DNA from: Gemmatimonadota bacterium
Lineage (GTDB): Bacteria; 4572-55; J002
Length of the DNA: 46,618 nucleotides
NCBI GenBank assembly: GCA_003697105.1
Contig: RFFQ01000025.1
Location: 1-46,618, forward strand
Direction of reading: 5' to 3'
In this document: positions 1 through 22,050 of the stretch, one piece after another
Numbering within the stretch: position 1 is the first letter of the stretch
Layout of the letters: the number at the start of each line of letters is the position of its first letter
The notes under the pieces: generated by a model
Database searches by the model: none
The model's input: only the letters and a program-made list of their open reading frames with translations
Told to the model about the DNA's origin: nothing
Program-made: the position numbers and the translations under genes

Positions 1-134
1 ATGCAACGTCTCTCCGGATAATGTGTTTCAATTAACGTGTGATGCGCATTCACGAATGGCTCGATCATTTCCTGTCACCTGATGTTCCCGGTGGCGGTTG
101 CGGTGGTAGAGACGTTGCAATGCAACGTCCCTAC
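1..134. repeat. GTAG-type REP-like palindromes: full copy at 106-134, right half of another copy at 1-15
   Basis: GTAGAGACGTTGCA-A-TGCAACGTCCCTAC at 106-134 is an inverted repeat with one mismatch; the window opens with ATGCAACGTCTCTCC, matching the right arm. Confidence 0.7.
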
Positions 135-192
135 GGGGGTATCCTACCGAATCCAGATAAGCGCGAAGGTGCATTGAAACATCAAAACAACT

Positions 193-228
193 GAGCCATT
201 TGGGAATGCTCCCCAATGGCTCTTTTTT
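193..228 (+). terminator. Intrinsic terminator-like hairpin
   Basis: GAGCCATTTGGG-AATGCT-CCCCAATGGCTC (one mismatch) followed by TTTTTT. Confidence 0.55.
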
Positions 229-355
229 ATGCCTTCCAGCCCGTGAAACACGACTTTTCTAATTATTTTAGTCATAATTTGAACTCAGCCGGTTAAAAAA
301 AACAGACCTCTCAACAAGATAGATACTGTTTTATAAACCATGTTTTCTCCATCGG

Positions 356-2044: not shown

Positions 2045-2156
2045 GCGCGTACCAACTGGAGTTGAAGGAAAGGAGGAAGTGATTTGTTTGTTGGTAATTG
2101 TAGCATAAAATTAAGGGTTCAGCAACCTATTTGTTGATGTTTCCTCCTTCACGACC

Positions 2157-2182
2157 TTCGCCAAAACGAAAAATTTGGCGAA
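2157..2182. repeat. Short palindrome (REP- or terminator-like) downstream of dut
   Basis: TTCGCCAAA-8 nt-TTTGGCGAA. Confidence 0.4.
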
Positions 2183-2234
2183 CCTATTGCGCTTTAACCC
2201 CGTGTAACCGTTTTGCCCGTCTCGGGCATTTATA

Positions 2235-2747
2235 TCAGAGATTTTCCCCCTGATAGATGCCTTGATACCCGTTGGTTTTTGTGCCGAGCCGGAAAAAGAC
2301 CAGTTGCAGAATCCGTGCGTTTTGCTGAAGGTGCAACCCTTGCGGATTGTAAACCACTAGCAGGGATTGGCTCTGTCCGCAATAGCCGGCGTCCCATACG
2401 GCGCTTTCCACGGTTGCTCCCACCCGCAACATGGAAGAACGGGGGCGGGCAAGTGCCATGACATCTTGGGGCAGATTCACCACTTCGTTAAATTGCACCA
2501 AATAACATCCCGGGGCTAACGGAAGCCACCCTTTTGCGTCAAACTGCAGTTCTGTGGTTTCTGGTAGTTGGCGCGCCGTATTGGAAAAATCTAACGTGCC
2601 AGCTCCCTTAAATTGGTACACGGCTTTCAAACTGAGATCGACCCCGTTGGGTTGCACTTGCACTGCCGGGTCAATCAGACCACTCAACAGGGGGGGGTCT
2701 TGATTGAGTAAAGTACGAATATCATGTTCGGTAAAAACGGAAGCCAT
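2235..2747 (-). CDS. dut: Trimeric dUTPase (dUTPase/dCTP deaminase family)
   Basis: QPNGVDL, ARPRSSMLR, AVWDAGYCG, RILQLVF, YQGIYQG motifs. Confidence 0.85.
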   Translation of the reverse strand: MASVFTEHDIRTLLNQDPPLLSGLIDPAVQVQPNGVDLSLKAVYQFKGAGTLDFSNTARQLPETTELQFDAKGWLPLAPGCYLVQFNEVVNLPQDVMALARPRSSMLRVGATVESAVWDAGYCGQSQSLLVVYNPQGLHLQQNARILQLVFFRLGTKTNGYQGIYQGENL

Positions 2748-2786
2748 TATTTATTCCTTTCGGGTTGGTTTCATAGGTTTTGCGCA

Positions 2787-3602
2787 TCAGGAATACAGTG
2801 CCCAACTGAATTTATTCCGGTATGTTTGGGTTGTCTCATGCGAGTCCCCCAAATAATTGAAGATGGCGCGACATGCCCGATTAGCCACCCCGTCGGCGTA
2901 ATTTTTATTGATACCCACCACTTCAATGAATTTTTCTAGGGCTGCGGGAAAATCTTGTTGAGTCAAGTGCTGGATGCCGTCCAAAATATCCGCTTTGAGC
3001 GAGCTTTCCGGCAATTCTACAGGGGACTGTTGGAGGTGGAACAGTTCGGCAAATGTTCGCAGGGCTTCTGCCGCATCAAAGGATGGGGAATCCCCTTCAA
3101 CCGGTTTGACCAGTTCCACCGCGCGCTCCGGCTCTGTGAAAATATATGTTTTTGCCAGTAGTACACGCGCCGCGTGGTTATCCGGTTCGGCATCAATAAT
3201 GGTCTGTAGAAGTTGGCGGGCGGCTTCGGTCTCTCCTGCCGCCAGATGTTGTTGTGCCTGTTTGAGAGTTGAGCGGTGTTTGCTGGGCAGTGCTTTTTTC
3301 AGCCACTGTTCAATCATCTGTTCGGGCAGAGCTCCGACAAATTCATCCACAACCTTACCATCCACAAATAATTTTACATTGGGGATGCCTTGGATGCCGT
3401 ATTCCCGGGCAATCTGGGGAAACTGGTCGGTATTCACTTTTACCAGTACCCAATCCTTATGGTGCTTTTGAGCGAGTTTTTCCAACACCGGTGCGAGTAC
3501 CCGGCAAGGTGCGCACCATTCTGCCCAAAAATCGACCACTACTGGAATTTTATAACTGTGCTCGATGACATCTTTTTGAAAATTTTGTGTGTCATATCCC
3601 AT
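2787..3602 (-). CDS. Thioredoxin-TPR chaperedoxin (YbbN/CnoX-like)
   Basis: VDFWAEWCAPC active site plus TPR-like C-terminus ending YRNKFSWALYS; start moved to ATG 3602 (MGYDTQNF) because the longer ORF overlaps the upstream gene. Confidence 0.85.
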   Translation of the reverse strand: MGYDTQNFQKDVIEHSYKIPVVVDFWAEWCAPCRVLAPVLEKLAQKHHKDWVLVKVNTDQFPQIAREYGIQGIPNVKLFVDGKVVDEFVGALPEQMIEQWLKKALPSKHRSTLKQAQQHLAAGETEAARQLLQTIIDAEPDNHAARVLLAKTYIFTEPERAVELVKPVEGDSPSFDAAEALRTFAELFHLQQSPVELPESSLKADILDGIQHLTQQDFPAALEKFIEVVGINKNYADGVANRACRAIFNYLGDSHETTQTYRNKFSWALYS

Positions 3603-3645
3603 TTTGTCACTCCATTTTGATGAGTTGTGTCTGATGATTGCTCCA

Positions 3646-4437
3646 TTAGGTTGACCGTCCTTTTTTTGCGACGACCATAATCCGGTAGGTTTTATCCGAC
3701 GGCGGGGTGAATTCCAGATGTTCGTAGATGTCCACCTGCGCAAAGCCGGCATGATCGAGCAAGCGGCGGATGGTGCTATAGGGGTAGAAGGTCTCTTTGT
3801 GGGTTTCCTGCCCGCGCAGGTAATAGCCGTTGTCTTGCCGGGCAAAAAAGGTCAGTTTGAGGGTAGAAATCCGGGTAGTCGCGTTATATTCGCTCTCCCA
3901 AATTGAGGTTAGATTCTTGGTTTCGCGCACGGTGGTGCCTTCTCCCCAGATTTGGCTAAGGGCAAACTCGGTGTTCATATCAAAGATATACAGCCCGCCG
4001 GGGCGTAGATGGTTGTAGGCGCATTGATAAGCTTTTTGCAACTGAGATTCTTTCAGCAGATAATTTAAACTATCATAGAGGCAAATCACCGCATCGAAGT
4101 GTTCCCTTAAGTCAAATTGGGTCATATCTGCCTGAATAAATTGGGTTTGGGGATATTTTGACTGGACACGTTCCTGAGCCACTTCCAACATGGCTTCGGA
4201 AAGATCGATGCCGGTGATGTCATAGCGATATTTGGCAAAGTAACCCGCCACAATGCCCGTACCGCAGGCAATATCCAACACCTTGGTGCCCCTGAGATTG
4301 TAGCGCCGGAAAATCCGCAAAATATAATCCACCCAACCGGCGTAATCGACATCATACATCAATTCGTCGTAATAGCGGGCAATGGTGGAATAGGGTAAGT
4401 TTGATTTTTTTTTCAGGTTAAACACGTTGATTCTCAT
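3646..4437 (-). CDS. Class I SAM-dependent methyltransferase
   Basis: VLDIACGTG, GIDLSEAML, DAVICLYDSLNY, LRPGGLYIFD motifs. Confidence 0.9.
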   Translation of the reverse strand: MRINVFNLKKKSNLPYSTIARYYDELMYDVDYAGWVDYILRIFRRYNLRGTKVLDIACGTGIVAGYFAKYRYDITGIDLSEAMLEVAQERVQSKYPQTQFIQADMTQFDLREHFDAVICLYDSLNYLLKESQLQKAYQCAYNHLRPGGLYIFDMNTEFALSQIWGEGTTVRETKNLTSIWESEYNATTRISTLKLTFFARQDNGYYLRGQETHKETFYPYSTIRRLLDHAGFAQVDIYEHLEFTPPSDKTYRIMVVAKKGRST

Positions 4438-5755
4438 CCATAATACCGGTTTGAAGCCATGCTTCTAAGGTGGTTAAGGCGCGTTCGACCATCTTTTGTC
4501 GCCGGGCTTGCCGTCCTCCTTTTGGCTTTGGCGTAATGGGAGGGAAAAGCCCAAAATTGATATTCATGGGCTGGAAATGATCGGGGTCTGCGGTGGTAAT
4601 GTAGTGAAGGAGCGCGCCGGTGGCGGTTTCCGGTGGCGGGTAAATGGGGGGTTGTTGGTGAACAAGCCGGGCTAGATTGATGCCGGCGATCAGTCCGGTG
4701 GCGATATCTTCGACGTAGCCTTCTACCCCGGTGAGTTGCCCGCCCACAAAGAGATCATCTCGTCGTTGGGTTTGCAGGGTGGGGCGAAGCGTTCGCGGGC
4801 TGTTCAGATAGCTGTTGCGGTGGATACTGCCGTAACGGTAAAACTCCGCGTTTTCCAAGCCGGGAATCAACCGGAAGATGCGTTTCTGTTCCCCGATTTT
4901 CAGTTGCGTTTGGAACCCGACCAGATTATAGCTGGTTTTAGCGGTGTTTTCTGCGCGAAGTTGCACCACCGCGAACGGTTTATCACCCGTGGTGGGATCG
5001 GTTAATCCAACGGGTTTCATGGGTCCGAAGGTGAGTGTTTCCCGCCCGCGCCGTGCCATCTCTTCGATAGGCATACACCCTTCAAAGTAGTGGCCGCGCT
5101 CAAAATCTGCCGGTAGGTGCGGTTCGCCGGCGATCAGTTCTTCGTAAAATCGATTATATTCCGCTTCTGTCATGGGGCAGTTGAGGTACGCCTCATCCCC
5201 GCCTTTGTCGTAGCGATTTTGAGAGAACACTTTGTCAAAATTGATCGACTCCGTCGCCACAATTGGGGAAATGGCATCATAGAAGAACAAATCTTGTTCG
5301 CCTAAGGTAGCGGAAATATCGGCAAACAGAGCATCGGACGTCAGCGGCCCGGTGGCAATCAGAACCGGCACATCTACTGGAATATGAGTGACTTCTTTCC
5401 GAATGATCGTCACGTTGGGGTGGTGTTCTAATTTTTCGGCAATATAAGCGGAAAATTGCGCCCGATCCACTGCCAATGCTTGTCCGGCAGGGACACGCGT
5501 CGCATCAGCCGCCTCGATTAGGAGTGAACCCAAGCGCCGCAGTTCTGCTTTTAGCAACCCATGCGAGGTAGATACATCATTGGATTTCAGGGAGTTACTG
5601 CACACAAGTTCCGCCAGATCGCCGGTTTTATGCGCTGGTGTTTGCTTTGCCGGGCGCATTTCATACAGTTCCACAGGGACGCCTCGGGTAGCAATTTGCC
5701 ATGCCGCCTCGCAACCGGCAAGCCCTCCACCGATAACAATCGCTTTGGGTGTCAT
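4418..5755 (-). CDS. trmFO: FAD/folate-dependent tRNA m5U54 methyltransferase TrmFO
   Basis: VIGGGLAGCEAAWQ, AELVCSNS, FEGCMPIE, NLVGFQT, GQLTGVEGY, FQPMNINFG; start placed at ATG 5755. Confidence 0.95.
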   Translation of the reverse strand: MTPKAIVIGGGLAGCEAAWQIATRGVPVELYEMRPAKQTPAHKTGDLAELVCSNSLKSNDVSTSHGLLKAELRRLGSLLIEAADATRVPAGQALAVDRAQFSAYIAEKLEHHPNVTIIRKEVTHIPVDVPVLIATGPLTSDALFADISATLGEQDLFFYDAISPIVATESINFDKVFSQNRYDKGGDEAYLNCPMTEAEYNRFYEELIAGEPHLPADFERGHYFEGCMPIEEMARRGRETLTFGPMKPVGLTDPTTGDKPFAVVQLRAENTAKTSYNLVGFQTQLKIGEQKRIFRLIPGLENAEFYRYGSIHRNSYLNSPRTLRPTLQTQRRDDLFVGGQLTGVEGYVEDIATGLIAGINLARLVHQQPPIYPPPETATGALLHYITTADPDHFQPMNINFGLFPPITPKPKGGRQARRQKMVERALTTLEAWLQTGIMDENQRV

Positions 5756-5840
5756 GGGGTATCCTTCTATATCATGTCTCACAAAATAGTACCAGCAAGG
5801 AGGTGTTTTACCCCCCTTGCTGGTAATTTTCATTTATGGC

Positions 5841-8057
5841 TCAATATCGTACGCCGAGATATATCTCGCGGCCTTTGGTCGGTCCCCACGCAAACGCTGT
5901 ATCAAAATAGGGACCAAAGGGGTCTTCCCAACTTAAAATAGGGTGTTCTTGGCGGTAGTCAAATAGATTTTCGACACCGGCGTAAATTTCCAACCGCTGC
6001 CAACGGCGGGTCAGTTGCAGGTTTGCCGTAAAATACGCCTCAGAAACCGGCGGTTGTTGCAAGTCCGCGGGTAATGTTGATGTATCTGGCAGGTGTTGCT
6101 CGCCGTACCAATGCAGCGACCCATCCACATACCAATTGCTTTGCAGTGGGCGGTAGGAGAGGGTGGTCAGTACTTTATGTTGCGCATTAAACGGCAGTTC
6201 GATCTTTTCGCCATCAACTCTGCGGTAAACATCCAAAAAATTGTAGGCAATTTTGCTGTTGATTGTTTCCCGCACGTCAATCAACAACTCTGCTTGCAAA
6301 CTGTTTGAGGCGGATTCTCCCTTAAAATTACTGATGTACGCCTGCCTTGGATCGCGATCATAATCCGGGAAAATCTGATTGGAGAACCGGGTGTGATACA
6401 CATCCACGCTGAGATGACCACTGATGGCGTCCCAAGCGTAATAATACGTTGCATTTGCCCCGAAACTAGCCGCTCGTTCCGGATCGAGATCGCCAGCGAT
6501 AATTACATCCCGCGAACTGGCAAGAAGATTGACATTTTCTGCGAAGATATTGACCGTGCGCAAGCCCGTCCCCGCTGAGAGACGGACATCCATCTGGGGC
6601 AATAACCGGTATTTCAGCAGGGCACGTGGGGTGATAAACATCCCCACATCGGGATGCTGATCGGCGCGCACCCCAACAATCACGGTGGCATTGTCCCAAT
6701 TGAAGACTTGCTCCGCAAACACGCCCGGAATCACGTCTGTTTTGTTGTAAATACCATCATAGGTGCGCTCCAACGGGTTGGCGAGAAATCGAATATCCTC
6801 ATTAAGGGTCAAATAACGCAAACTGAGTCCTGTGCGTAAGGTGTGGGTTTGCCAATCCCGCTCGTATTGTAGATTGGCGTAGCCCTGAAACTGATCTGCC
6901 TGATACTGTACGGTGCCGAAATATGCCTCTTGATCCTGATAGACGGTAGAGGCAAATAACGCCAGCCGGTGTTGGGCATTTAACCGGCGGATAGTTTTCA
7001 GATAGATTTCCGGTTGGGTGAGGGCAACGGTTTGCCCAAACACTTGCGTACTCGCTCGATCCTGTTCTGCATCATAGGTCACTTGCCCACCGGTGCGGTG
7101 TTCGTGCAAATAGCGCAATCCGATTTGCGTGTACCAACGGGAGTCATTTTTGGTGCCATATTGCCACTTGTTGTACATCATGTAGCGGGTTAGTAAGGGT
7201 AAATCTGTAAATTGGTCGGCATTGTTATCGATGCGGCGGGCAGGTTGCACAGAATGCGCCGCCAGCAACGTTTGCCAGCCTTTCCACTGGCGGCTGATCG
7301 TGGCGTTGTACTGGGTTTCGCCAAAGCTGTTGCCGTAAGCATTGATTGCGAGTGGAGACTCCTTTTCGGGTGTTTTCAGTTCCACATTGACCTGCCCGCT
7401 GATGCTCTCAAACCCTTGTAATACCGAATTTACGCCTTTTGTCACGTAAATATTTTCGATCAATGTGCTGGGATAACTGCTAATTCCATAGGTATAGGTT
7501 AAGCCTTGTATCAAGGGCATTCCATCGATCAACACCTGATTGTAAACGCCGGACAATCCCAAAATACGTAATTCTCGGGTGTGGGTGATGATATTTGTCG
7601 TAACCGCCTCCACCGATGAATTGCTACCAAAACAGCCGGTTAAATCACAGCAGGCGGCTTTGGTAAACTCGGCATCGGTGATGACTTCGGTTTTGTAGGC
7701 TGTTTCACGGTCGATAAATCCGGCGATCTGTTGCCCCACTACGGTGACTTCATCCATGTAGATGGTGGCGGGTTTCAAACTGATCAGCACGAAACTCGGG
7801 TCAGTTACGGTGAGCGTATCTGGGGCAAAACCGATGTATTGAACGAGCAAAGTGGACTCCGGTTGGTCTGGCATCTCAATCGCGAAATTACCGTCAGGGT
7901 CCGTCAGGGTCCCAATGGGGGTACCTTGCCACGAGACATTTGCCCCGGCAAGTGCCGCTCCGGTTGAATCGTCCATGACCATGCCGCGTAGAATTTCCGC
8001 GGGAAGCCCACTGCACGTCATAAAAAGTAGAATCAGGGTGTAAATTCCTGTTTTCAT
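5841..8057 (-). CDS. TonB-dependent outer-membrane receptor, probably metal-related
   Basis: Signal peptide, carboxypeptidase-regulatory-like N-domain, plug with KAACCDLTGCF, C-terminal barrel strand GREIYLGVRY; SD GAGGAG before ATG 8057. Confidence 0.88.
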   Translation of the reverse strand: MKTGIYTLILLFMTCSGLPAEILRGMVMDDSTGAALAGANVSWQGTPIGTLTDPDGNFAIEMPDQPESTLLVQYIGFAPDTLTVTDPSFVLISLKPATIYMDEVTVVGQQIAGFIDRETAYKTEVITDAEFTKAACCDLTGCFGSNSSVEAVTTNIITHTRELRILGLSGVYNQVLIDGMPLIQGLTYTYGISSYPSTLIENIYVTKGVNSVLQGFESISGQVNVELKTPEKESPLAINAYGNSFGETQYNATISRQWKGWQTLLAAHSVQPARRIDNNADQFTDLPLLTRYMMYNKWQYGTKNDSRWYTQIGLRYLHEHRTGGQVTYDAEQDRASTQVFGQTVALTQPEIYLKTIRRLNAQHRLALFASTVYQDQEAYFGTVQYQADQFQGYANLQYERDWQTHTLRTGLSLRYLTLNEDIRFLANPLERTYDGIYNKTDVIPGVFAEQVFNWDNATVIVGVRADQHPDVGMFITPRALLKYRLLPQMDVRLSAGTGLRTVNIFAENVNLLASSRDVIIAGDLDPERAASFGANATYYYAWDAISGHLSVDVYHTRFSNQIFPDYDRDPRQAYISNFKGESASNSLQAELLIDVRETINSKIAYNFLDVYRRVDGEKIELPFNAQHKVLTTLSYRPLQSNWYVDGSLHWYGEQHLPDTSTLPADLQQPPVSEAYFTANLQLTRRWQRLEIYAGVENLFDYRQEHPILSWEDPFGPYFDTAFAWGPTKGREIYLGVRY

Positions 8058-8092
8058 GGCATACTCCTCTTGAAATGATAACATATTGTGGA

Positions 8093-8428
8093 TTAACAAG
8101 TATGAACCGTATCCACGATTTGTGGAGGACGCCAAATCTCGTAACTAATGATCCAAAGGGCTGGCTGGAATCGGGTTATAGGAGCATACAAAATGATGAG
8201 ATGGGGGAGACCCGTCAATGTTGAGTGGACCCACCCGGTGCAACAACTCCGGTGACAGGGCACTAACGGATTGCAAGGGGAGTCTTCTGCGGTTTCGCTT
8301 CCGGTGACGGGTGCCGGCGATGGAACGTCGCAACAACTCGAGGCGGGTGCGGGGATTGACGTTGCCCAAACCGGTTGAATCAATAATACGATAAGATAAA
8401 GGATGAACAAGAAACTTACGAGTTTCAT
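8093..8428 (-). CDS. Small Cys-rich leader protein with C-terminal WRPP motif (DUF6660/DUF2946-like)
   Basis: N-terminal hydrophobic signal, CC and CNPLVPCHRSCC clusters, EIWRPPQ near the C-terminus; ends 35 bp before the TonB receptor start. Confidence 0.7.
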   Translation of the reverse strand: MKLVSFLFILYLIVLLIQPVWATSIPAPASSCCDVPSPAPVTGSETAEDSPCNPLVPCHRSCCTGWVHSTLTGLPHLIILYAPITRFQPALWIISYEIWRPPQIVDTVHTC

Positions 8429-8529
8429 GATTCGCAAAAATGGGATTGGATGATAGCAAATGTAACCTTATTTAACCAGATGTGCTGAAAATCGGCGGAA
8501 TTGATCCGTTTGTCAAGGGGAATATGTTG

Positions 8530-11500
8530 CTATGCGACGGATAGGTGCTGTTGCAACTGGTGTAATCCCTTTTTGAGACGGACGATTTCGGCTTCCAGTT
8601 CATCAAGTTGGGATTCCACGCTCTGGGGGGCGGGTGGTTCGGAAAGGGACGAAGTGGTGATCGCTTCGGTTAGGGCATCGATCCGGTGTTGGTAATCAAT
8701 ATTAGGGGTTTGTTGGTAAAGGGATTCGTAAAGTTGAATTGCCTGCTTGGCATCGTTTTGATTCCGGATAATTTGGTAAAGTTCATCGTTAATTCGGGCG
8801 AGATGCTCTTTTTGGTTGGTTTGGGTCCGCAACGTTTTAAGGGCGTCGATCACGACTTCCTGCTCCGCCGGGGAGGTGCTCTGCCGGTAGCGAATCTTTA
8901 AGTCCAGAAAACGGCATTGAAATACCAAATCCGGTTGGTGCTGTTTTTCGGCGAGCTGGTGGGCTTCGGTATTCATTGTTTTGGCTTCTTCCAAACGGTC
9001 AAGATGGTAGCAAAAGTTGGCGTACGTCTGCAATAGGGAAGGTATAATTTTCTTGAGATTCCACGTTCGGCACAAGGTCAATGCTTTTTGGTAGGCGGCT
9101 TCGGCTTTATCAAATTCTTTCAGTTGAGTGTACAATGCCGCGATGTTAATCAACGCAATACTCATGGCACGTTTATTGTCCACTTCTTCTGCCAGTACTA
9201 GGTTGCGCTGATAGTGTTGCAGGGCTTGGTCATACTCTCCCCGCAGATAATGCACATTGCCGATATTACCATGAACGGCGGCAAGCTCGATTTTATTCCC
9301 GATGCGCTGGCTGACCTCCAGTTTTTGCCGGTAACATGCCATTGCTTGCTCGTACTGGCCCAAACTGCGGTGAACAATCCCCATATTGCCAATGCTGATC
9401 GCCATGGCGGTTAAATCGTCCTGTTCCAGCGCCAGTTGGTACTGCTTTTGGAAGGCATTCATGGCGTCGTCCGGCTTGCCCATGTCTTTCAATGCCAATC
9501 CGATATTATTCAAAAATTTAATTTTAAGGTATTGGTTATCAATCGTATTGGCAATTTCCAACCCATTTTGATAATTTGCCAATGCGGCGGCGGCTTCGCC
9601 ATAATGCCAGTGGATCAGTCCTGAAACTTGCAGACATTCTGCTTGTCCTTCCAAATTATTTTGGGAGAGGAACGTTTCGTAGGCGGGGCGCAAGTATTTG
9701 AGGGCTTCACTGTAGTTGCTTTTTTTATAATACGTTATTGCCAATCCTAATTGTCCTTTGGCGCGGTGAAGGGGATCGCCGTGACCGCTGTTATGGTTAA
9801 GGATAGAGGTATAAGTTGCTAGGGCATCATCTAAAGCGGTTGTATCCAGTTGAACTCTGCCTTTTTTGAGTTGGATGTCTATTCGTGCGTCCACCTCTTC
9901 TGGCGGGATCAATTCCAATAGCTGGTCATAGTAGCGAATGGCTTTATCATTGGCAAAATTTGCTTTGGCTTTTTCTGCGGCTTTTTCCAGATAGATACGG
10001 GCTTGGGTTGTGTTTTGTGCGTGGTAGTAGTGATGCGCCAGATGATCGACATGCTCTTCCAGAGAGGATTCAAAAATATGTTCCAGATGTTGGGCTAAAT
10101 ATTGGTGCAGATAGGGTTTATCAGTGATGCTGGCAACAATCATCTCTTGTACTTTGCTGTGTGCCAAACGATAAAAAAGCATTCCTTCCACTTCCAGAGA
10201 GGTGATCCACTCCGCTTGTTCCAGCCGGTCAAGGATTTGGGGTAGGGGGGTTTGGATGGCATCGATAATGACCTCTTGCAGGATTTCAAACCGTACTTCG
10301 TCTTCCAATAATGCCAGAATTTGGAGACAAAACACTTCATCTGGGCTAAAGTGTTCTCGTTTCCAGCGCTGTTCGATGATTTCAACCGAATCCAAACTGC
10401 CGGATTGTTCGGGCAGTGGTTTGGTTAGTTCCCAAGATGTACCGCGCCGGTCAATGACTTCGGTTTCCACGAGGGATTTCACTATTTCTTGCAACAATAG
10501 CGGGTTGCCCCCAATGTGTTGTTGGAGGTGGGACAATGCCGATTGTAACGAATTGCCTACGTGCCCTTTACCAAAAATACCGGTTAGATAGGTTTGGATG
10601 GCGTCCGGGGTGAGCGGTTGTAATTCTATCCGGTGGAGATGGTGCCGGTCTTGTAGGGGCTTAAGCCAATTCTGAATCCGCTCAAGCTGTTCTGTTCGAG
10701 CAGTGGCAATCAGGCTCAGATGTGATGTAGTTTTATCCGTTTTTTTCTGATGGTCTAGCAGACTGGTGAGGATTTGCCAACTGCCGGAATCCGCTGCATG
10801 GATATCTTCCAGACACAGAACCAGGGGTTCGTCCTGTTCTGCCAAAATATCCATTAAAAAGTCGGTAATTGTCTGGATCAAGATACGTTGTTCTGTGGAA
10901 GGGATTTGTACGGTATCCGGCATGATCTTTTGGAGTTGGGGATGTCGCGGTAGGATTTTTTTAAGGGTTGAGCCATGAATTTGAATAACATTTGCCGAGC
11001 AGTCGTAGAGCAACTCGCTGATGATGTCAATAAATGGGGAATAGCTGGTCAGAATATGCTCGATGCACTTTGCCTCCACAAAGCGGATATGGTGGATGCG
11101 GCAATGTTTTTTTAGTTCCTGTATGAGCCGGCTTTTACCAATACCCGCCTCACCGGTGAGCAATACCAACTGGGGTTGGGAGGATTCCATTAAGGCGGTT
11201 TTGATGGTATGAAGTTCCGCATCTCTCCCAATGAAATCAGCACCCATCACATACGCCCGGCGTGTTTCGGGGGTTTCCAAGGGGTAATTAGTGTTTAATT
11301 TCCGGTTGATGTCTTCAATGACCTCGACCCCACCGGCGTAGCGGTCTGTTGGGTGATAGGCAATCATGCGGCTGACGATCTCGCGCAGTGGAGGAGATTC
11401 AATCCGGGCTAATTCCAATTGTTGCTGGTGCTTAAATGTATCTGGCTTTTTTAGGATGTTCACCAGCGAGCCTGAACCATGCCGGGAAAACAATACGTGT

Positions 11501-14500
11501 CCGGTCAGCAATTGGTAGAACGTTACCCCCAAGGCGTAAATATCGACACCGTGATCGATGGTTTGTGCATTTAATACTTCGGGTGCCATGTAGAGGAGAG
11601 TCCCTTTGTGCCGCTGTTCCAGATGGTCTGCCAAATCTGCCAGACCAAAATCTAACACTTTGACCTGCTCGCCGGTCAACATGATATTTCCCGGCTTCAA
11701 ATCGCGGTGCAAAATTCCACGGCTATGGATGAACTGTACCGCCCGGCAGAGGTCAACCATGATGTCCAATGCTCGTTGCTGCCCGATTTGCCGTTGTTCT
11801 CGAAGCAGGTCAGATAAAGTCACCCCGTCAACGTATTCCATGATGATGAAATAATTTTCGGTGGTGCGATCCGCGCCAAAATCATACACGCGCACCAGAT
11901 TGGGATGGCGGAGGCGGGTCATCACTTCAAATTCTTTTTTGAAGGCTTCAACGGTTTTGTGGGTAAATGTATCCGGTTTGATGGCTTTTAGTACCATCTG
12001 TTGCCGTCCTCGCAAGAGGTCTTCCACGAGGACAACCGTCCCCATTTCACCTTCACCAAGAGCGTGAAGGCGCCGGTAGCGGTTAAGGGGCTGGTAAGGT
12101 GCAATCTGCGGTACTTTTTGGGCTAATTTTTCAATGTAACGCTGATACCCTCCGCCGGGATATTTTGCGGCGAGTTTTTTATACCGTTTCAAGGCACGGT
12201 TGCGATAGTGGTTGCGATGGGTCATCTCGTATAACTCATTATCGAGTTTGGCTTGATCGGGGGGATCGAGTTCGGCAAGGAGCGCTTCAAATTCATCCAA
12301 CACCGCGTGAGGCGTTTCACTTTGATAATATTTTAATTGGAGTTGTAATATCCGAATTTTTGTTATCATCTCTTCATGATTCGTCTCTGTTGCCCATGTG
12401 TAGGCTTGGGTAAGGAAGGGTTCAACTTCATCATATTTTTGCATTTTCAGCTTGAGGTCTGCTTTGCTGTAATACGTTCCGCAGAGGTAGTAACGGCGTG
12501 GTTTCGTATCATTTATGGCATCGCCATATTCGAGCGCCATATCCAGATATTTTTCCGCCTCCGCATAATTTTTCCACTGTTTGTAAATATCACTCATGCC
12601 ATTAAGTGCAATAATACAACTGAGTTTATTGCCTAATTCTTCTGAGATTTGCCATTTGCGCCGGTAACAGCGCAAGGCTTCCTCGTATTTACCCAAAGAA
12701 AGGTAAGCAACGCCCATATTTCCGCTCACCACACTAATGCTGCGTTTATCCCCCATTTCAAGGGTGAACTCCAGTTGCTGGTGATAGTACCGGAGAGCTT
12801 CTTCAAATTGATGTTGCATGATAAACACATTACCGCTGTTCCCCAATGCCATACACAAACTGGCTTTATCCCCAATTTTAGTAGCGATTTCGGCTTGTCG
12901 TTGGTAGTATTCCAGTGCTTTTTCATAATCTTTATGGTGCCAAAAATGAACATTGCCTATTGTGCCAATAGCGACGGCAATGCCGCGTTCATTCCCGATT
13001 TCTTCATCAATTTTGAGTTTACGGGTATAATATGCAAATCCCTCTTCAAATTGAGCCTGATCCAGATGCACATTCGCCACATTGCCGAGTGTTTCACTAA
13101 TGAGGTGTTTATCCTGTATTTTTTTGGCTATAGCCAGTCCCTGTTGGTACTCTGCCATTGCCTGCGGGTAGAGTTGTTGCCGAAAATAGACATTTCCGAT
13201 TTTATTATGAATTTTTCCAACCTCTGCCGGCGAACCCGTGCGCTCGTAGTAAGCAAGACATGCTTGTAATAGCTCCAATGCCGCCGGGTAATTGCCCTGA
13301 TTGTAAAAAATGGTTGCGACCCGCGTTTGGCTGGCGACAACCCACCGTTCATCGTTGAGCTGTTGGGCACGTTCTAGGGTCTGCTGGTAGAGTGCTAAAC
13401 TTTCGCTCCACTGTCCGGTACGTTGAAGAATATCCCCTTTTTGATGCAAAATCGCGATTTGCTCCGCTTCATCTAATTCCACTTTTTCCAATAATAATTC
13501 GTAATATTGAATCGCCTTTTGGTTGGCAAAATTGCGAACGGCTTTACTGGCAGATTTTTCCAGATAATACCGAATTTTCGCCTGATTGTTTGTTTGGCAG
13601 TAGTGGTATGCCAGTTCTTCGACGTGATTATCCAGATTGAGTTGGTAGATCAGTTCCAGTTGTTCCGCGATGTGGTGGTGGATTTGGGCTGGATTTGGTA
13701 TCTGATCCTGCACTACTTCCCGAATGCAGTCATGACTGGGACGGTATAGGATTGTCTGATCCACTTCTTCGCCGGTGATGAGTTCTTTATCTTCCAGAGC
13801 ACGCAAAATATCGATGGCTTCCGGCGGATTTTTGAGGATGAGGAGTTGTTCAAAAATTTCGAGCGGAATACTTTTGTTTACCAAAGCAAGAATTTGCAAG
13901 CCTTGCATTTCCGTAAAGCTTAAATTGAGCCGCTCCAACCGGTGTTTCACCAACATTTTTACATCATGGGAGAGTTCGGCTTCCGCGAACGCCGCGGTCA
14001 ACTCCCACGTTTTGCCTTGCCGGATAATGATCCCGCGTTCCACGAGAGATTTGACCAACTCTTGCAAGTAAAGTGGATTTCCTCCGACTTGCCGTTCAAT
14101 AGCCTCAACCGCCGCGAAAAGCGATTTTCCAACCCGGTCTTGACCGAAAATGGCGATCATGTATTGCTCAATGTCTGTTCGCCGGAACGGAGAAAGACGG
14201 ATAATTTGTAACCGCTGTTTTGCGTTAAGATTATCTATTAGGGGTTGAATATGGGGTAGTTCTTCTTCTTGACTACAGGCAAAAATACGGAAAAACCGCT
14301 CTGCAGGTTCTAAACGGGAGAGTTTAAATAGCAGTTCGCGCAATACTTCTTGTGTTCCCGGGTCTGCCGCGCCCAACCGGTGGAAAAGGAGTACATGGGT
14401 TTCCTGAGCTTCAATACTGTAATCGATCAGGAAACGGGTGATCGCCTCGATTAATATGCTTCGCTCAATTTGGCTATCTTGTACGGGTTTGGCAGCCATG

Positions 14501-15687
14501 CCCTGCAATTTGGGATGATTCGGCAACAGTTTTTTCAGATCACCAGCATACAGGGCGCATAGTTCCGGGCTGGCATTTAGGATGGCTTCGTTCAAAATAT
14601 CGATTATGGGGGCGAATGTTTTGGAACCGTCCCGGGAGATATACCCTTCCATCCCGTTGATCGCATGAAGTTGGCAATACTTTTTCAATTCCTGTAATAG
14701 GCGCGTTTTTCCCACACCGGATTCACCGGTCAGTAGTAAGAGTTGATCGGCATTCTGCGGTTGGTTCAATTTTGCCACGAGGGTTTTCAATTCTGCTTCG
14801 CGGGCAATAAAACTGGTACTTTGGACGTATGCTTCGCGGGTTTGAACCGTTTCCAGCGGGAAAGGGACTTCTCGATGCTGGTTAATCGCGAGGATCACAT
14901 CACTCGCGGTTTGAAAGCGTTCGTTGGGGTTGTAAGCGATCAGACGCCGGATTACATGGCGTAAATCGGGCGAGTCGATCCGCTGGAGCGCCTCTTGCTG
15001 GCGGATTTCAAATTGTTGTACATCTTTCAAAATGTGTAAGATAGCTTTAGAGGATTGGTTCCGGTAAAGGGTTTGCCCGTTGAGACGTTCGAGGAGTGTC
15101 ATGCCCAACGCAAAAATATCAGTACGCGGATCAATTGTTTGGTGCAATACCTCCGGCGCCATGTAAAGAAGTGTACCTTTTGTACGGGCGGGTTGTTGCA
15201 ACCCTAAATCTGCCAGACCAAAATCGAGGATTTTCAGGGTGGAAATATCTCGTTCCGGAGTTTGAAACATGATGTTGCCGGGCTTGATGTCCCGGTGCAA
15301 AATCCCCCGGCTATGAATGAATTCCAACGCCCGGCAAAGGGTGACGATGAGACTCAATGCCTCCTCCGTGGAAATCGGAAGCTGTGCCCGGATACTATCT
15401 GCTAATGATTCGCCGCCGACATATTCCATCGTCAAATAATAGAGATCGGTGGTTCGATCCCACCCAAAATCATAAACACGAGCCAGATTGGGGTGTTTCA
15501 GGCGAGTGGCAATGTCAAATTCTTGCTTGAACACGTTGAGGGTTGCCGGGTTGATCCGTTCTTTTTTGATGGTCTTGAGCGCCAACGTGCGATTTCCCCG
15601 TAGCACATCCCGCACTTGATAAACGGTACCCATCCCCCCTTCGCCGATGGTTTTGATGATTCGATAACGATGGTGAATTAACGTCAT
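8530..15687 (-). CDS. Giant tandem (Ser/Thr kinase-STAND/AAA ATPase-TPR)x2 protein, 2385 aa
   Basis: Two Hanks kinases (HRDIKPGN and HRDLKPGN, DFG, YMAPE), two Walker A motifs (GESGVGKT, GEAGIGKS), two GGNP motifs, two TPR arrays. Confidence 0.92.
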   Translation of the reverse strand: MTLIHHRYRIIKTIGEGGMGTVYQVRDVLRGNRTLALKTIKKERINPATLNVFKQEFDIATRLKHPNLARVYDFGWDRTTDLYYLTMEYVGGESLADSIRAQLPISTEEALSLIVTLCRALEFIHSRGILHRDIKPGNIMFQTPERDISTLKILDFGLADLGLQQPARTKGTLLYMAPEVLHQTIDPRTDIFALGMTLLERLNGQTLYRNQSSKAILHILKDVQQFEIRQQEALQRIDSPDLRHVIRRLIAYNPNERFQTASDVILAINQHREVPFPLETVQTREAYVQSTSFIAREAELKTLVAKLNQPQNADQLLLLTGESGVGKTRLLQELKKYCQLHAINGMEGYISRDGSKTFAPIIDILNEAILNASPELCALYAGDLKKLLPNHPKLQGMAAKPVQDSQIERSILIEAITRFLIDYSIEAQETHVLLFHRLGAADPGTQEVLRELLFKLSRLEPAERFFRIFACSQEEELPHIQPLIDNLNAKQRLQIIRLSPFRRTDIEQYMIAIFGQDRVGKSLFAAVEAIERQVGGNPLYLQELVKSLVERGIIIRQGKTWELTAAFAEAELSHDVKMLVKHRLERLNLSFTEMQGLQILALVNKSIPLEIFEQLLILKNPPEAIDILRALEDKELITGEEVDQTILYRPSHDCIREVVQDQIPNPAQIHHHIAEQLELIYQLNLDNHVEELAYHYCQTNNQAKIRYYLEKSASKAVRNFANQKAIQYYELLLEKVELDEAEQIAILHQKGDILQRTGQWSESLALYQQTLERAQQLNDERWVVASQTRVATIFYNQGNYPAALELLQACLAYYERTGSPAEVGKIHNKIGNVYFRQQLYPQAMAEYQQGLAIAKKIQDKHLISETLGNVANVHLDQAQFEEGFAYYTRKLKIDEEIGNERGIAVAIGTIGNVHFWHHKDYEKALEYYQRQAEIATKIGDKASLCMALGNSGNVFIMQHQFEEALRYYHQQLEFTLEMGDKRSISVVSGNMGVAYLSLGKYEEALRCYRRKWQISEELGNKLSCIIALNGMSDIYKQWKNYAEAEKYLDMALEYGDAINDTKPRRYYLCGTYYSKADLKLKMQKYDEVEPFLTQAYTWATETNHEEMITKIRILQLQLKYYQSETPHAVLDEFEALLAELDPPDQAKLDNELYEMTHRNHYRNRALKRYKKLAAKYPGGGYQRYIEKLAQKVPQIAPYQPLNRYRRLHALGEGEMGTVVLVEDLLRGRQQMVLKAIKPDTFTHKTVEAFKKEFEVMTRLRHPNLVRVYDFGADRTTENYFIIMEYVDGVTLSDLLREQRQIGQQRALDIMVDLCRAVQFIHSRGILHRDLKPGNIMLTGEQVKVLDFGLADLADHLEQRHKGTLLYMAPEVLNAQTIDHGVDIYALGVTFYQLLTGHVLFSRHGSGSLVNILKKPDTFKHQQQLELARIESPPLREIVSRMIAYHPTDRYAGGVEVIEDINRKLNTNYPLETPETRRAYVMGADFIGRDAELHTIKTALMESSQPQLVLLTGEAGIGKSRLIQELKKHCRIHHIRFVEAKCIEHILTSYSPFIDIISELLYDCSANVIQIHGSTLKKILPRHPQLQKIMPDTVQIPSTEQRILIQTITDFLMDILAEQDEPLVLCLEDIHAADSGSWQILTSLLDHQKKTDKTTSHLSLIATARTEQLERIQNWLKPLQDRHHLHRIELQPLTPDAIQTYLTGIFGKGHVGNSLQSALSHLQQHIGGNPLLLQEIVKSLVETEVIDRRGTSWELTKPLPEQSGSLDSVEIIEQRWKREHFSPDEVFCLQILALLEDEVRFEILQEVIIDAIQTPLPQILDRLEQAEWITSLEVEGMLFYRLAHSKVQEMIVASITDKPYLHQYLAQHLEHIFESSLEEHVDHLAHHYYHAQNTTQARIYLEKAAEKAKANFANDKAIRYYDQLLELIPPEEVDARIDIQLKKGRVQLDTTALDDALATYTSILNHNSGHGDPLHRAKGQLGLAITYYKKSNYSEALKYLRPAYETFLSQNNLEGQAECLQVSGLIHWHYGEAAAALANYQNGLEIANTIDNQYLKIKFLNNIGLALKDMGKPDDAMNAFQKQYQLALEQDDLTAMAISIGNMGIVHRSLGQYEQAMACYRQKLEVSQRIGNKIELAAVHGNIGNVHYLRGEYDQALQHYQRNLVLAEEVDNKRAMSIALINIAALYTQLKEFDKAEAAYQKALTLCRTWNLKKIIPSLLQTYANFCYHLDRLEEAKTMNTEAHQLAEKQHQPDLVFQCRFLDLKIRYRQSTSPAEQEVVIDALKTLRTQTNQKEHLARINDELYQIIRNQNDAKQAIQLYESLYQQTPNIDYQHRIDALTEAITTSSLSEPPAPQSVESQLDELEAEIVRLKKGLHQLQQHLSVA

Positions 15688-15734
15688 ATGATGATTTTGT
15701 TTGTTTTCGTTTTAAGATGGTTACTGATGCTCAG

Positions 15735-15763
15735 AGTAAACACTATTCTGCGACATCTGTCAA
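15735..15763 (-). promoter_or_regulatory. Possible sigma70 promoter for the kinase gene
   Basis: TTGACA (15763-15758), 17 bp spacer, weak -10 TTTACT. Confidence 0.3.
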
Positions 15764-15827
15764 CCTGTTTTTGCACATCGGTGTGGTATAATTTCACGGT
15801 GCATTTTTGTGACCAACGTGTTTTAGG

Positions 15828-15884
15828 AATCTGTACTTTTTTGTATATTTTAATCTTGACTTTTTTGTATAGATTATATACTTT
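15828..15884 (+). promoter_or_regulatory. suf promoter with two tandem 24-bp quasi-palindromic boxes (candidate Rrf2 operator)
   Basis: AATCTGTACTTTTTTGTATATTTT and AATCTTGACTTTTTTGTATAGATT (20/24 identical); TTGACT at 15856 with TATACT/TACTTT 15-17 bp downstream; TGGTATAAT extended -10 also at 15784-15792. Confidence 0.6.
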
Positions 15885-15947
15885 CCCGCCCAATACTATC
15901 CAACAGAATTTTAATTTTCATCAGACCAAGCCAAAAGGAGTGGGCGA

Positions 15948-17435
15948 ATGAGTTCAGTGGTAGAGGATACGAAACGTGTGGAAAACGAGCGTCATGATAG
16001 TGATGCGATTATTGATTCGCATGTGGCGCAGGAGTATAAATATGGCTTTTACACTGAGATTGAGGCGGATTCACTTCCCCCGGGATTAAACGAGGAGATT
16101 ATCCGGGCACTTTCTGCCAAGAAAAATGAGCCGGAATGGATGACGGAATGGCGTTTAAAAGCCTTCCGGCACTGGCAAAATATGGAAGAGCCGAGATGGC
16201 CCAATGTGACGTATGAACCGGTGGATTATCAGGCGATTACCTACTATTCCGCCCCTAAAAAGAAAGGGGAGGGTCCGCAAAGTTTGGATGATGTGGACCC
16301 CGAATTGATCCGTACTTTTGAAAAGCTGGGTATCCCGCTGGAAGAGCAGAAAATGTTGGCAGGTGTCGCGGTTGATGCTGTTTTTGATAGTGTTTCGGTG
16401 GCGACAACCTTCAAGGAAGAACTTAAAAAGGCTGGAGTCATCTTCTGTTCCATGTCAGAAGCGATTCAGGAGCATCCAGAACTGGTCAAAAAATATTTGG
16501 GGTCTGTGGTGCCGCAAACGGATAACTTTTTTGCCGCGCTCAATTCGGCAGTCTTTAGTGATGGGTCGTTTTGTTACGTACCCAAAGGGGTACGTTGTCC
16601 GATGGAACTATCCACGTATTTTCGCATCAATGCTATGAATACGGGGCAGTTTGAACGCACATTGATTGTCGCCGATGAAGGGGCTTATGTCAGCTATCTG
16701 GAAGGATGTACCGCTCCCATGCGGGATGAAAATCAGTTACATGCGGCCGTTGTGGAACTGGTGGCGCTGGATAATGCTGAAATCAAATATTCTACGGTCC
16801 AAAATTGGTACCCCGGTGACGAGCAAGGTAAAGGTGGGATTTACAACTTTGTGACCAAACGAGGTCGAGCCGAAACGAACGCCAAAATTTCATGGACTCA
16901 GGTGGAAACCGGTTCTGCCATCACCTGGAAATATCCCAGTGTGATTTTGAAAGGGGACAATTCCATCGGTGAGTTCTACTCCGTGGCACTTACCAAAATG
17001 CGCCAACAAGCGGATACCGGCACCAAAATGATACACTTGGGTAAAAACACGCGCAGTACGATCATCTCGAAAGGGATTTCTGCCGGCTATAGCAATAATT
17101 CGTATCGTGGGTTGGTCAAAGTGATGAAGGGGGCGGCAAATGCCCGAAATTACACCCAATGCGACTCCATGTTGATGGGTGATAAGTGTGGTGCCCATAC
17201 GTTCCCTTATATTGAAGTCAAAAATTCAACTGCCAAAGTGGAACACGAAGCGACAACATCTAAAGTGGCAGAAGATCAAATTTTTTACTTGATGCAACGT
17301 GGCCTTTCGGAAGAAGATGCGGTCTCGATGATTGTGAACGGTTTTTGTAAAGAAGTGTTCCGCCAACTGCCGATGGAGTTTGCCGTGGAAGCCCAAAAAT
17401 TGCTTAGTATTAGTCTGGAAGGCAGTGTGGGCTAA
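15948..17435 (+). CDS. sufB: Fe-S cluster assembly protein SufB
   Basis: [40 protein letters not shown]. Confidence 0.97.
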
Positions 17436-21294: not shown

Positions 21295-21432
21295 TAATCA
21301 TATTTACATAATTTTTTAATTATCCCCGAGTATGGAAACCTGTGGTTAGGTTAGCGGATAACGGCGTGTCCCTTGGAGAGGGGCACATCGCTCGCTAAAT
21401 TGCATTTCACACATCAGGGTATAGGTGTTATC

Positions 21433-22050
21433 ATGGCATTTCTCGGCATATTCAAACGGGATGATGCGGATACAACCGCAACATCTTCATCGCTCTCTCA
21501 ACAACAAGTAATTGAGGTTTTAAAGCAGTGCTACCCGCCCAATAATCCCCAAAGCGTTTACGATTTAGGTCTTGTTTCGCTGGTGGAAGTGGAAAACGGC
21601 AACGTGCACATCGATTTGACGGTGGATCGACCAAAATCTCCAGAAACCAAAGCGCTGGTGGAGAAGATCGACGCTCAGGTGAGGACGCTGGGCGGACTGG
21701 AAGAACTTACAATTGATGTTCATGGGAAGAAAAATACCCAATCCACAGACCTAACCGAAGCGGATATCATCGACGTTATCAAAACCTGTTATGACCCGGA
21801 GATTCCGGTCAATATTTATGAATTAGGGCTGATTTACGGGATTGAAATTCTGGATGGCGGTGTCGTCGATATAAAAATGACGCTAACAGCTCCAAATTGT
21901 CCGGCGGCGCAATCCTTGCCGGAAGAGGTTCGTTACAAAATTAGCCAATTGGATGGGGTGCAAGATGTCAATGTTAATATTGTCTGGACGCCGCCTTGGA
22001 CTCCAGACTTAATGTCAGAAAGCGCACGGCTTGAACTCGGTATTTTCTAA
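21433..22050 (+). CDS. sufT: SufT/DUF59 (MIP18-like) Fe-S assembly protein with tandem DUF59 domains
   Basis: C-terminal domain YDPEIPVNIYELGLIY...MTLTAPNCP...PPWTPDLMS; N-terminal degenerate copy CYPPNNPQSVYDLGLV. Confidence 0.8.
   Translation: MAFLGIFKRDDADTTATSSSLSQQQVIEVLKQCYPPNNPQSVYDLGLVSLVEVENGNVHIDLTVDRPKSPETKALVEKIDAQVRTLGGLEELTIDVHGKKNTQSTDLTEADIIDVIKTCYDPEIPVNIYELGLIYGIEILDGGVVDIKMTLTAPNCPAAQSLPEEVRYKISQLDGVQDVNVNIVWTPPWTPDLMSESARLELGIF

Follow-up and report, generated by a model that had tools for sequence, protein, structure and literature searches.

Can a complete signalling module of the STAND type, with its effector, its nucleotide-binding switch and its sensor, be repeated in series on one polypeptide, and if so what might the repetition serve? 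The question is raised by a 46,618-nt stretch of DNA (the window; contig RFFQ01000025.1 of assembly GCA_003697105.1) from a Gemmatimonadota bacterium, which is C88 among the 199 contigs of a 4.18-Mb genome with a completeness of 96.85% and for which run records give a hot-spring metagenome as the source habitat. On its minus strand a single open reading frame (ORF) at 8530..15687, with an ATG start and no internal stops, encodes a protein of 2385 aa in which a protein kinase, a nucleotide-binding oligomerisation domain (NOD) and an array of tetratricopeptide (TPR)-like repeats follow one another twice. STAND proteins and NLRs are usually viewed as single switches that assemble with their own copies, and plants and animals also use a separately encoded partner. 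We consider it reasonably probable that the protein is a real single chain, soluble and cytoplasmic, that consists of two old, diverged Ser/Thr-kinase modules of the PknK/MalT-type STAND kind and works as a two-module signalling protein.

Every domain of the protein is doubled in Pfam matches, which comprise Pkinase (two stretches, 358 bits), AAA_16 (two stretches, 147.5 bits against a gathering cut-off of 32.6), TPR_MalT (two stretches, 80.7 bits against 45) and seven stretches of TPR_12, together with TPR_10. A scan against NCBIfam gave nothing at cut-off, the best multi-domain match being TOMM_kin_cyc with 191 bits against a cut-off of 705.75. An earlier reading of the same sequence (the original prediction) had proposed two full modules of about 1190 residues in one chain, and this is borne out by the domain matches and by BLASTP alignment of module A (residues 1-1195) with module B (residues 1196-2385), which are 34.95% identical over 1196 columns (E = 0, 686 bits). 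From the N terminus to the C terminus the parts of the protein, with the evidence used to place them, are:

14872..15687, minus strand: kinase A, Hanks-type Ser/Thr kinase, residues 1-272 (Pfam Pkinase, motifs, fold match to PknB)
13702..14871, minus strand: kinase-NOD linker and NOD A (P-loop nucleotide-binding domain, helical domain, winged helix), residues 273-662 (Pfam AAA_16, AlphaFold2)
14377..14382, minus strand: codons for H436-R437, at the Walker B acidic positions of module A (alignments)
12124..13701, minus strand: arm and TPR-like sensor A, residues 663-1188 (Pfam TPR_12, TPR_MalT and TPR_10, AlphaFold2)
12082..12123, minus strand: inter-module linker of 14 residues, 1189-1202 (A1189-N1202), AQKVPQIAPYQPLN (sequence and contig crossing)
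11302..12081, minus strand: kinase B, residues 1203-1462 (Pfam Pkinase, best stretch 1204-1450, motifs)
10129..11301, minus strand: linker and NOD B, residues 1463-1853 (Pfam AAA_16, best stretch 1485-1649, AlphaFold2)
8659..10128, minus strand: arm and TPR-like sensor B, residues 1854-2343 (Pfam TPR_12, best stretch 2135-2207, and TPR_MalT, 2086-2328)
8530..8658, minus strand: C-terminal tail, residues 2344-2385, and stop codon (read from the sequence)

The two modules are clearly diverged, as had been predicted, and in a pairwise alignment their identity drops along the module: the kinases are the most alike (0.50-0.58), the NTPase and arm less so (0.31-0.42), and the TPR part the least (0.18-0.26). 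At the DNA level the halves are alike only in patches of about 65-74% identity, which indicates that the duplication is old and rules out the collapse of a repeat during assembly. Both halves, of 3.6 kb each, have reached this 35% protein identity without any stop or frameshift. No 19-residue segment of the protein reaches the hydrophobicity of a membrane helix (the highest Kyte-Doolittle value is 1.34), and the GC content of the gene (0.473) is close to that of the window (0.481).

The junction between the modules, placed by the original prediction near nucleotide 12090 and residue 1200 or so, is located at nucleotides 12082-12123. L1188 is the last residue of the motif that caps the repeats of module A, and R1203 is the first of kinase B; the linker nucleotides between them hold no relic of a start codon or of an intergenic spacer, and the other two frames are closed there. 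The last block of the AlphaFold2 model of module A has a predicted local distance difference test score (pLDDT) of 56, consistent with a flexible linker. Contigs from three public runs, all built with a different assembler, were aligned on 8300-15900; two of them (X1 and X2) come from two samples of one study and may be the window's own source, and the third (X3), from a second study of 2025, is the one set of independent data. The X1 contig (15,573 nt) covers 8300-15838 with no differences and no gaps. The X2 contig covers 11969-13421 free of gaps with two substitutions, both missense, of which Q1190P falls inside the linker and the other is W782L, and the X3 contig (234 nt) covers 12035-12268 with no differences. 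Since contigs from three runs and two studies thus bridge the linker without a stop or an indel, the misassembly or lost stop between 12000 and 12200 against which the prediction had advised a check is excluded. A promoter and terminator scan of 8000-16100 was uninformative, with 13 promoter and 9 terminator sites where shuffled sequence would give 12.5 and 9.9, and it listed no promoter-like site on the minus strand between 10168 and 15872.

By their motifs both effector domains are Hanks-type kinases (Gly-loop, VAIK lysine, HRD..N, DFG and APE, bilobal fold). Kinase A has the Gly-loop, K38, H131-R132-D133, N138, D155-F156-G157 and A177-P178-E179, and kinase B has the Gly-loop, K1234, H1327-R1328-D1329, N1334, the DFG that begins at D1346 and the APE that begins at A1368; the longer signatures HRDxKPxN (with D133 and D1329) and GTxxYMAPE are kept in both. 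The retention of the catalytic K, HRD, DFG and APE in both copies, which the original prediction had pointed out, therefore holds residue by residue in the alignment. Superposition of the module A model on the kinase domain of Mycobacterium tuberculosis PknB (5u94) gives a template modelling (TM) score of 0.89, normalised to the target, with a root mean square deviation of 2.4 and 31% identity.

The kinase and the NOD are joined in both modules by a segment with the pattern LET..TR.AYV...F..R..EL. AlphaFold2 modelling of the whole of module A, on a 63-row alignment, gave a mean pLDDT of 91.4 and a predicted TM score (pTM) of 0.79. In the predicted structure a kinase fold extends to about residue 270 and is followed by a P-loop domain of five strands (316-321, 344-349, 431-436, 466-473 and 493-497), by helical and winged-helix domains to about residue 662, by four arm helices (666-735) and by 23 more helices (740-1190). 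The NOD and arm of module B (residues 1457-1986) were modelled with similar confidence (pLDDT 91.5, pTM 0.84). In a sequence search of the PDB with the NOD-TPR part of module B, the best 60 of 85 matches were TPR proteins only, and the relationship to STAND proteins was established by fold instead. Foldseek against the PDB ranked the STAND-TPR protein 6mfv first for the module A model (E 2.3e-16, 764 columns), followed by PknB kinase domains; for the NOD B model it returned Apaf-1 (3shf, 3sfz, 1z6t), Avs3 (8dgc), 6mfv (in fourth place), MalT (8bob_C) and CED-4, with E values of about 1e-9 to 1e-7. The modelled nucleotide-binding, helical and winged-helix domains, with the kinase N-terminal to the NOD and the repeat sensor C-terminal to it, reproduce the STAND layout, and these predicted folds settle the superfamily as a STAND NOD of the AAA_16/MalT kind. 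The description of the protein as NLR-like in the original prediction is thus right at the level of the superfamily, while the NTPase itself belongs to the AAA_16/MalT-type branch, as in PknK, and is neither a NACHT nor an NB-ARC domain.

The nucleotide-binding sites of the two modules differ. Walker A is canonical in both (GESGVGKT at residues 321-328 in module A, GEAGIGKS in module B), and module B also has a canonical Walker B strand (LVLCLED-IHAAD, with E1627-D1628), so that the STAND P-loop signature of Walker A plus Walker B is full in module B and partial in module A. The corresponding strand of module A reads HVLLFHR-LGAAD, where H436-R437 replace the [D/N/E]-D pair of its relatives; besides Walker A, NOD A keeps the conserved AD and the GGNP motif. 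Across 235 NODs from 230 homologues the Walker B acid column holds D in 185, N in 29, G in 9, E in 4, Q in 3 and H in 2, and it is R in module A; the Walker A lysine is K in 227 of the 235. The Walker B acid has a general role in nucleotide hydrolysis, which is the ground for reading module A as non-hydrolysing: with this acid replaced and Walker A intact, module A probably binds nucleotide and is unlikely to hydrolyse it.

Sensor A ends in the cap motif ELYEMT...ALKRYKKL...P...YQRYIEKL and sensor B in one of the same type, ELYQII...AIQLYESL...P...YQHRIDAL; in a pairwise alignment sensor B is shorter by about 41 residues, or about one repeat. The shared linker and terminal motifs, which the original prediction had used to define the repeat, are kept in all eight of the concatenated modules of the clade described below and in the consensus of the wider family. 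Behind the second cap follows the tail that the original prediction had called a coiled coil: direct reading of residues 2344-2385 finds a Pro/Ser-rich stretch and, behind it, a putative helix, SQLDELEAEIVRLKKGLHQLQQHL, whose Leu/Ile residues are spaced 3-4-3-4 in a heptad-like pattern for some three heptads.

The closest comparison comes from within the phylum, which is represented in our collection by three genomes, two of them with kinase-NOD matches. In the window's own genome a kinase plus NOD query (E <= 1e-40) has seven matches, which are the two modules and five other loci. In a second genome, G001, the contig C7 (L022) has at 2-13456 on the minus strand an ORF that is cut short by the end of the contig; its 4485 or more residues contain four serial kinase-NOD-TPR modules, with kinases starting at residues 8, 1178, 2334 and 3540. 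On the contig C36 (L023) two modules are encoded by an ORF of 2220 aa or more. The C7 chain would be among the largest STAND proteins if its assembly is right. The four internal junctions of these chains have the same layout as the one in the window, in which a cap motif, a short linker of about 10-25 residues and an 'NRY' kinase start follow one another, and the cap motif is conserved at every module end. The kinase motifs are intact in all eight aligned concatenated modules (window protein and G001 chains); Walker A is degenerate in two of the four C7 modules, whose kinases are intact, with GPAGSGST in module 3 (K to S) and SQPGQGRS in module 4 (K to R). The G001 kinases also have an insert of 15-25 residues between the catalytic loop and DFG, with a consensus like QLSAISGQP..EAESWQLKADS, of which window module A (14872-15687) has a short version and module B none.

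In a maximum likelihood tree of 20 modules over 809 columns all concatenated modules fall into one clade with 100/100 support, from which we take concatenation to be a trait of one lineage-specific subfamily; the clade also includes one single-module gene per genome (G000:C25 and G001:C143). Within it an inner clade of seven (97/95) holds modules A and B, the four C7 modules and the second C36 module. The order inside this inner clade is not settled by the tree, and for this reason the A-B pair cannot be dated before or after the split from G001.

How common is such a chain elsewhere? In a word search among proteins of similar length (1311-4174 aa) the protein was its own sole high-scoring match, and the next one had 499 bits. 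An exhaustive HMMER search with module A against 1.84 billion representatives gave 23,553 proteins at E <= 1e-30, and the best 150 of these are mostly single modules of about 1050-1300 aa: 147 of the 149 non-self proteins among them have one NOD per chain, and two NODs occur only in P0237 and P0267. When 267 non-self proteins were scanned with hidden Markov models built from the 20 modules, two NODs were found in five (P0237, P0267, P0018, P0044 and P0068). P0237 contains kinase-NOD-TPR twice and then a third kinase, GAF and histidine kinase, and P0044 and P0068 are doubled cyclase-NOD-TPR proteins. A search limited to proteins longer than 2092 aa had 86 matches at E <= 1e-20, of which 84 were new; eight of these have two (P0295, P0299, P0300, P0302, P0306, P0307) or three (P0274, of 3873 aa, and P0275) kinase+NOD modules, and six more have two NODs and at most one kinase. 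Both samples favour high-scoring and long proteins and so speak to recurrence and rarity and not to frequency. A kinase-motif-pattern search of genome contigs returned mostly plain kinases, with kinase and NOD together in only 7 ORFs of 79 loci, and its single multi-module ORF was the G001 chain again. The doubled design is therefore rare but recurrent, and the window protein, which departs from the usual one-NOD form of the AAA_16/MalT branch, is one of at least 11 such chains.

The nine multi-module proteins from these searches have 24-27% identity to the window protein in eight cases and 25% in P0237, and they belong to NOD clades other than its own; several end in GAF and histidine-kinase domains, and their descriptive names go at most as far as 'serine/threonine protein kinase/predicted ATPase'. 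Internal module identities are 29-48% in the five doubled proteins compared. A quick tree of 55 NODs distributes the doubled proteins over six or more distinct clades (Shimodaira-Hasegawa-like approximate likelihood ratio test 99-100), each with both modules of its members. The groups P0018/P0292/P0293 and P0044/P0068/P0313 each have module-1 and module-2 subclades conserved across members, which implies that the doubled state was kept through speciation; P0299/P0300/P0302/P0307 share a supported module-2 subclade, with the module-1 copies left unordered. The two NODs of P0267/P0294/P0297 are placed at distant points of the tree, as if dissimilar modules had been fused. Two other arrangements were seen in the same material. 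Three proteins of 2398-3562 aa (P0303, P0311 and P0314) string together three to six kinases but lack a NOD, and so represent kinase concatenation of another sort. Two adjacent kinases before a single NOD recur in P0283, P0286-P0288, P0291, P0312, P0316, P0059 and P0072, and precomputed domain lists give the solute-binding domain PF00496 for several of these.

The first alternative to a signalling protein is an immune one. The original prediction had raised an antiphage role by its mention of Avs and bNACHT, and in its full form this account makes the protein a fused sensor/helper pair like paired NLRs or Avs/bNACHT, in which a phage protein would bind at the TPR array and the kinases would shut down the cell. 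Several features fit: the NOD B model matches Avs3 (8dgc, E 2e-9) among other STANDs, the kinases match the PADLOC models mad6, PD-T4-6, MkoA and Stk2, the missing Walker B acid in module A beside a canonical module B recalls sensor/helper asymmetry, and the sensors are the most diverged part of the modules. In the best 25 of the 36 and 37 PADLOC families matched by the two halves all align to the kinase, bar one generic TPR model in module A, and no STAND defence model is among them. The gene also does not sit in the defence or mobile-gene setting of antiphage STANDs. Downstream on the same strand are genes for a TonB-dependent receptor, TrmFO/GidA, a methyltransferase and thioredoxin, and upstream, divergently oriented, are sufB, sufC, sufD, sufS, nifU and Rrf2, with a fused LptF/LptG farther away; all these genes within about 10 kb have housekeeping functions, and none encodes a restriction, toxin or mobile-element protein. 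The G001 chains adjoin a sigma-54 activator, a VWA/VIT protein and glycosyltransferases, so that synteny is not conserved. The family has expanded as ordinary paralogs in the window's own genome, and the GC content of the gene, which equals that of its surroundings, likewise speaks against an immune receptor.

The outputs of the relatives bear on the same choice. Relatives longer than 1500 aa within the best 150 number 33, and the 27 of them that fell within a size limit were scanned for additional domains. After the TPR cap these extended single-module proteins have GAF (25), HATPase_c (19), HisKA (10), REC (5) and GGDEF (4), and no nuclease, SIR2, TIR or protease appears among the 25 of 46 families listed. 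The position after the cap is thus the attachment site of classical signalling outputs in this family, and in the window protein it is taken by a second complete module. Given the housekeeping context and the GAF, histidine-kinase and GGDEF outputs in the family, intracellular signal transduction is the likely role over phage defence; the antiphage suggestion fares poorly on these grounds, and we regard an immune receptor as unlikely.

A second alternative is that the duplication is decaying, with module B as the only working STAND switch and module A an inert or structural extension heading for loss. The replaced Walker B acid of module A, and the absent Walker A lysine in modules 3 and 4 of the C7 chain, speak for it. 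Against it, the motifs of kinase A are complete, NOD A retains Walker A, the conserved AD and GGNP, the module is predicted as confidently as NOD B, and no stop or frameshift interrupts either 3.6-kb half at 35% identity. Elsewhere the doubled state is conserved across diverged members, with separate module-1 and module-2 subclades. Decay is on balance an improbable explanation. The last alternative, that misassembly, or a sequencing error at a stop codon, made one frame out of two neighbouring paralogs, is hardly credible, although the genome was assembled from a metagenome into 199 contigs and tandem paralogs are known to trap assemblers, because the roughly 65% patchy DNA identity of the halves is insufficient for repeat collapse, the contig of another assembler spans the entire gene unchanged while two more cross 12082-12123 intact, the 14-residue linker lacks any remnant of a start or spacer in a region where the other frames are closed, and the same layout recurs at four further junctions in G001 and in nine more multi-module proteins elsewhere.

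Against these arguments for a two-module signalling protein must be set several observations that weigh the other way. The sequence support comes throughout from metagenome contigs, with two of the three runs possibly the source samples, and the G001 chains, which a single assembly provides, are truncated at contig ends. Neither tree settles in which order the modules of the clade were duplicated. The kinases score well on PADLOC kinase models (mad6, 1e-61 to 1e-66), and antiphage systems include both STAND-TPR proteins and Ser/Thr kinases. At least 43 of the 235 homologous NODs have no acidic residue at the Walker B column, and these are mostly single-module proteins; most other doubled proteins keep both Walker motifs, the exceptions being module 1 of P0306 and both modules of P0295. 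As a general rule the argument from a degenerate site is weak, because a fifth of the homologues lack the acid and most doubled proteins keep both sites.

How a two-module STAND kinase might work can be proposed by analogy; we infer that ligands gate the modules and that the modules cooperate, and we likewise infer what the degenerate site means and what the protein does in the cell. Each module comprises a Hanks kinase, an AAA_16 NOD with its nucleotide-binding, helical and winged-helix domains, an arm and about 11 TPR-like hairpins, and would rest in a closed, nucleotide-bound state like that of MalT and Apaf-1. Binding of a ligand at the TPR sensor and arm would open the NOD, and nucleotide exchange would then allow NOD-NOD association, which would bring the kinases together for trans-autophosphorylation and phosphorylation of substrates; trans-autophosphorylation is our presumed form of the multimerisation output where the effector is a kinase. 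A tandem chain would fix two different sensors at 1:1 and keep two kinases within mutual reach, and could in this way integrate two signals. A non-hydrolysing module A would act as a non-resetting or regulatory partner that modulates or latches the canonical module B.

A more far-reaching form of this proposal, to which we give little credence, is that concatenated STAND kinases are pre-paired receptors, in which a non-hydrolysing module (module A here, modules 3 and 4 of the C7 chain) would serve as a dedicated sensor that licenses its hydrolysis-competent partner, so that kinase output would need two different ligands simultaneously. If true, bacteria would have their own version of sensor/helper NLR pairs, held together by a covalent link, and AAA_16-type STANDs would have arrived at it on six or more separate occasions. 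Of the traits of paired NLRs, coupling is given here by fusion, and a motif asymmetry is seen in module A and in C7 modules 3 and 4. The fused sensor/helper pair of the original prediction accordingly survives in part: two full modules, two diverged sensor arrays and a module A without the Walker B acid are there, but the asymmetry is absent from most doubled proteins, and the trans-phosphorylation within the chain that the prediction also raised is conjectural.

The single module is of a known kind. PknK has an N-terminal Hanks kinase, a MalT-type STAND NTPase and a helical-repeat sensor, with one module per chain. Each module of the window protein is like PknK in these three parts, a comparison by architecture and not by sequence, and the difference is that there are two modules per chain in place of one. 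Avs3 (8dgc) shares the STAND NOD fold (E 2e-9), and its TPR-like sensor recognises a protein. The effectors of Avs systems are nucleases and domains of that sort and are not known to include kinases; the window protein differs from Avs in its kinase effectors, in having no STAND model among the PADLOC matches listed and in lying outside a defence island. MalT of E. coli (8bob) has a NOD-arm fold like that of NOD B (TM 0.62 normalised to MalT, 462 columns, E 6.8e-9; 14% identity), but it is a single-module protein whose effector is a C-terminal LuxR-type DNA-binding domain, whereas the effector here is an N-terminal kinase. The 6mfv protein has in common with the modules the layout of NTPase, winged helix and TPR, and differs in being a kinase-free single module in a 641-residue chain, with 14-15% identity to the window modules. 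One article places PknK of M. tuberculosis beside MalT as a STAND Ser/Thr kinase, and describes a MalT-type scheme in which a closed, ADP-bound NOD receives an inducer at the sensor and arm, opens and undergoes ATP-dependent multimerisation (PMC4381067).

Doubling of a STAND NTPase in one polypeptide has a precedent in the wheat NLR WTN1, which has tandem NB-ARC domains, described as non-canonical (bioRxiv 10.1101/2024.08.30.610185). WTN1 is eukaryotic, of the NB-ARC type and without a kinase of its own, it works with a separate tandem-kinase protein, and its NTPase is the only part described as doubled; it is an analogy and not a homologous architecture. Literature searches on tandem or double NB-ARC, NACHT, NOD and STAND proteins returned only WTN1 and noise, and those on STAND with protein kinase, AAA_16 and TPR returned one paper, on fungal NLRs, in sources that mostly do not cover subscription journals. 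A term search of a 2026 Nature survey of bacterial STANDs (PMC13581612) gave no passage on tandem modules or on kinase effectors of this kind. The statement in the original prediction that the architecture had not been characterised holds in so far as no describing paper was found, but the architecture is not unique, since chains of two, three and at least four modules exist in the relative and in other lineages. What is new is the serial concatenation of whole modules of the PknK/MalT-type STAND kinase.

The significance of the finding lies in whole effector-switch-sensor modules on one chain, two here and three or at least four elsewhere. Several independent origins and retention over long divergence imply that it is advantageous to hold different sensors close together and in a fixed ratio. 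The protein, being soluble, of only two modules, from a hot spring and possibly heat-stable, could suit cryo-EM and biochemistry, and could reveal in what way the NODs and kinases of one chain cooperate and whether a degenerate site acts as in sensor NLRs. If the modules do not cooperate, the protein would be a rare fusion of a common bacterial signalling kinase and no more.

Some further genes were noticed along the way. Beside the SUF/Rrf2 genes, at 23226-24602 on the minus strand, lies a stand-alone TPR_12/TPR_MalT protein of 458 aa with 24% identity to sensor A, which could be a free sensor-like paralog. Outside the window, G000:C92:5323-16876 has at least six matches in a row to the TPR part of module A in frames of about 660-840 aa and looks like a tandem array of TPR genes. 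The 854-aa ORF at 26654-29218 (minus strand) contains two LptF_LptG stretches (569 bits), so that the halves LptF and LptG of the lipopolysaccharide-export permease are apparently fused, and within the SUF cluster a 225-aa ORF at 21373-22050 (plus strand) has two FeS_assembly_P stretches, a duplicated SufT-like domain. At 36137-37711 (minus strand) a response-regulator receiver is fused to a PglZ domain, a protein that we take to resemble PorX-type regulators of type IX secretion. The product of 40533-42080 (plus strand, 515 aa) combines ATP-grasp_2 with the citrate-binding domain of ATP-citrate lyase; it may be a subunit of ATP-citrate lyase or of citryl-CoA synthetase, which is of interest for carbon fixation in hot springs. 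A subtilase with FlgD_ig-type C-terminal domains is encoded at 43642-46461, and a WD40 beta-propeller protein of 562 aa at 356-2044 (minus strand) has some 180 residues upstream of every best Pfam stretch listed.

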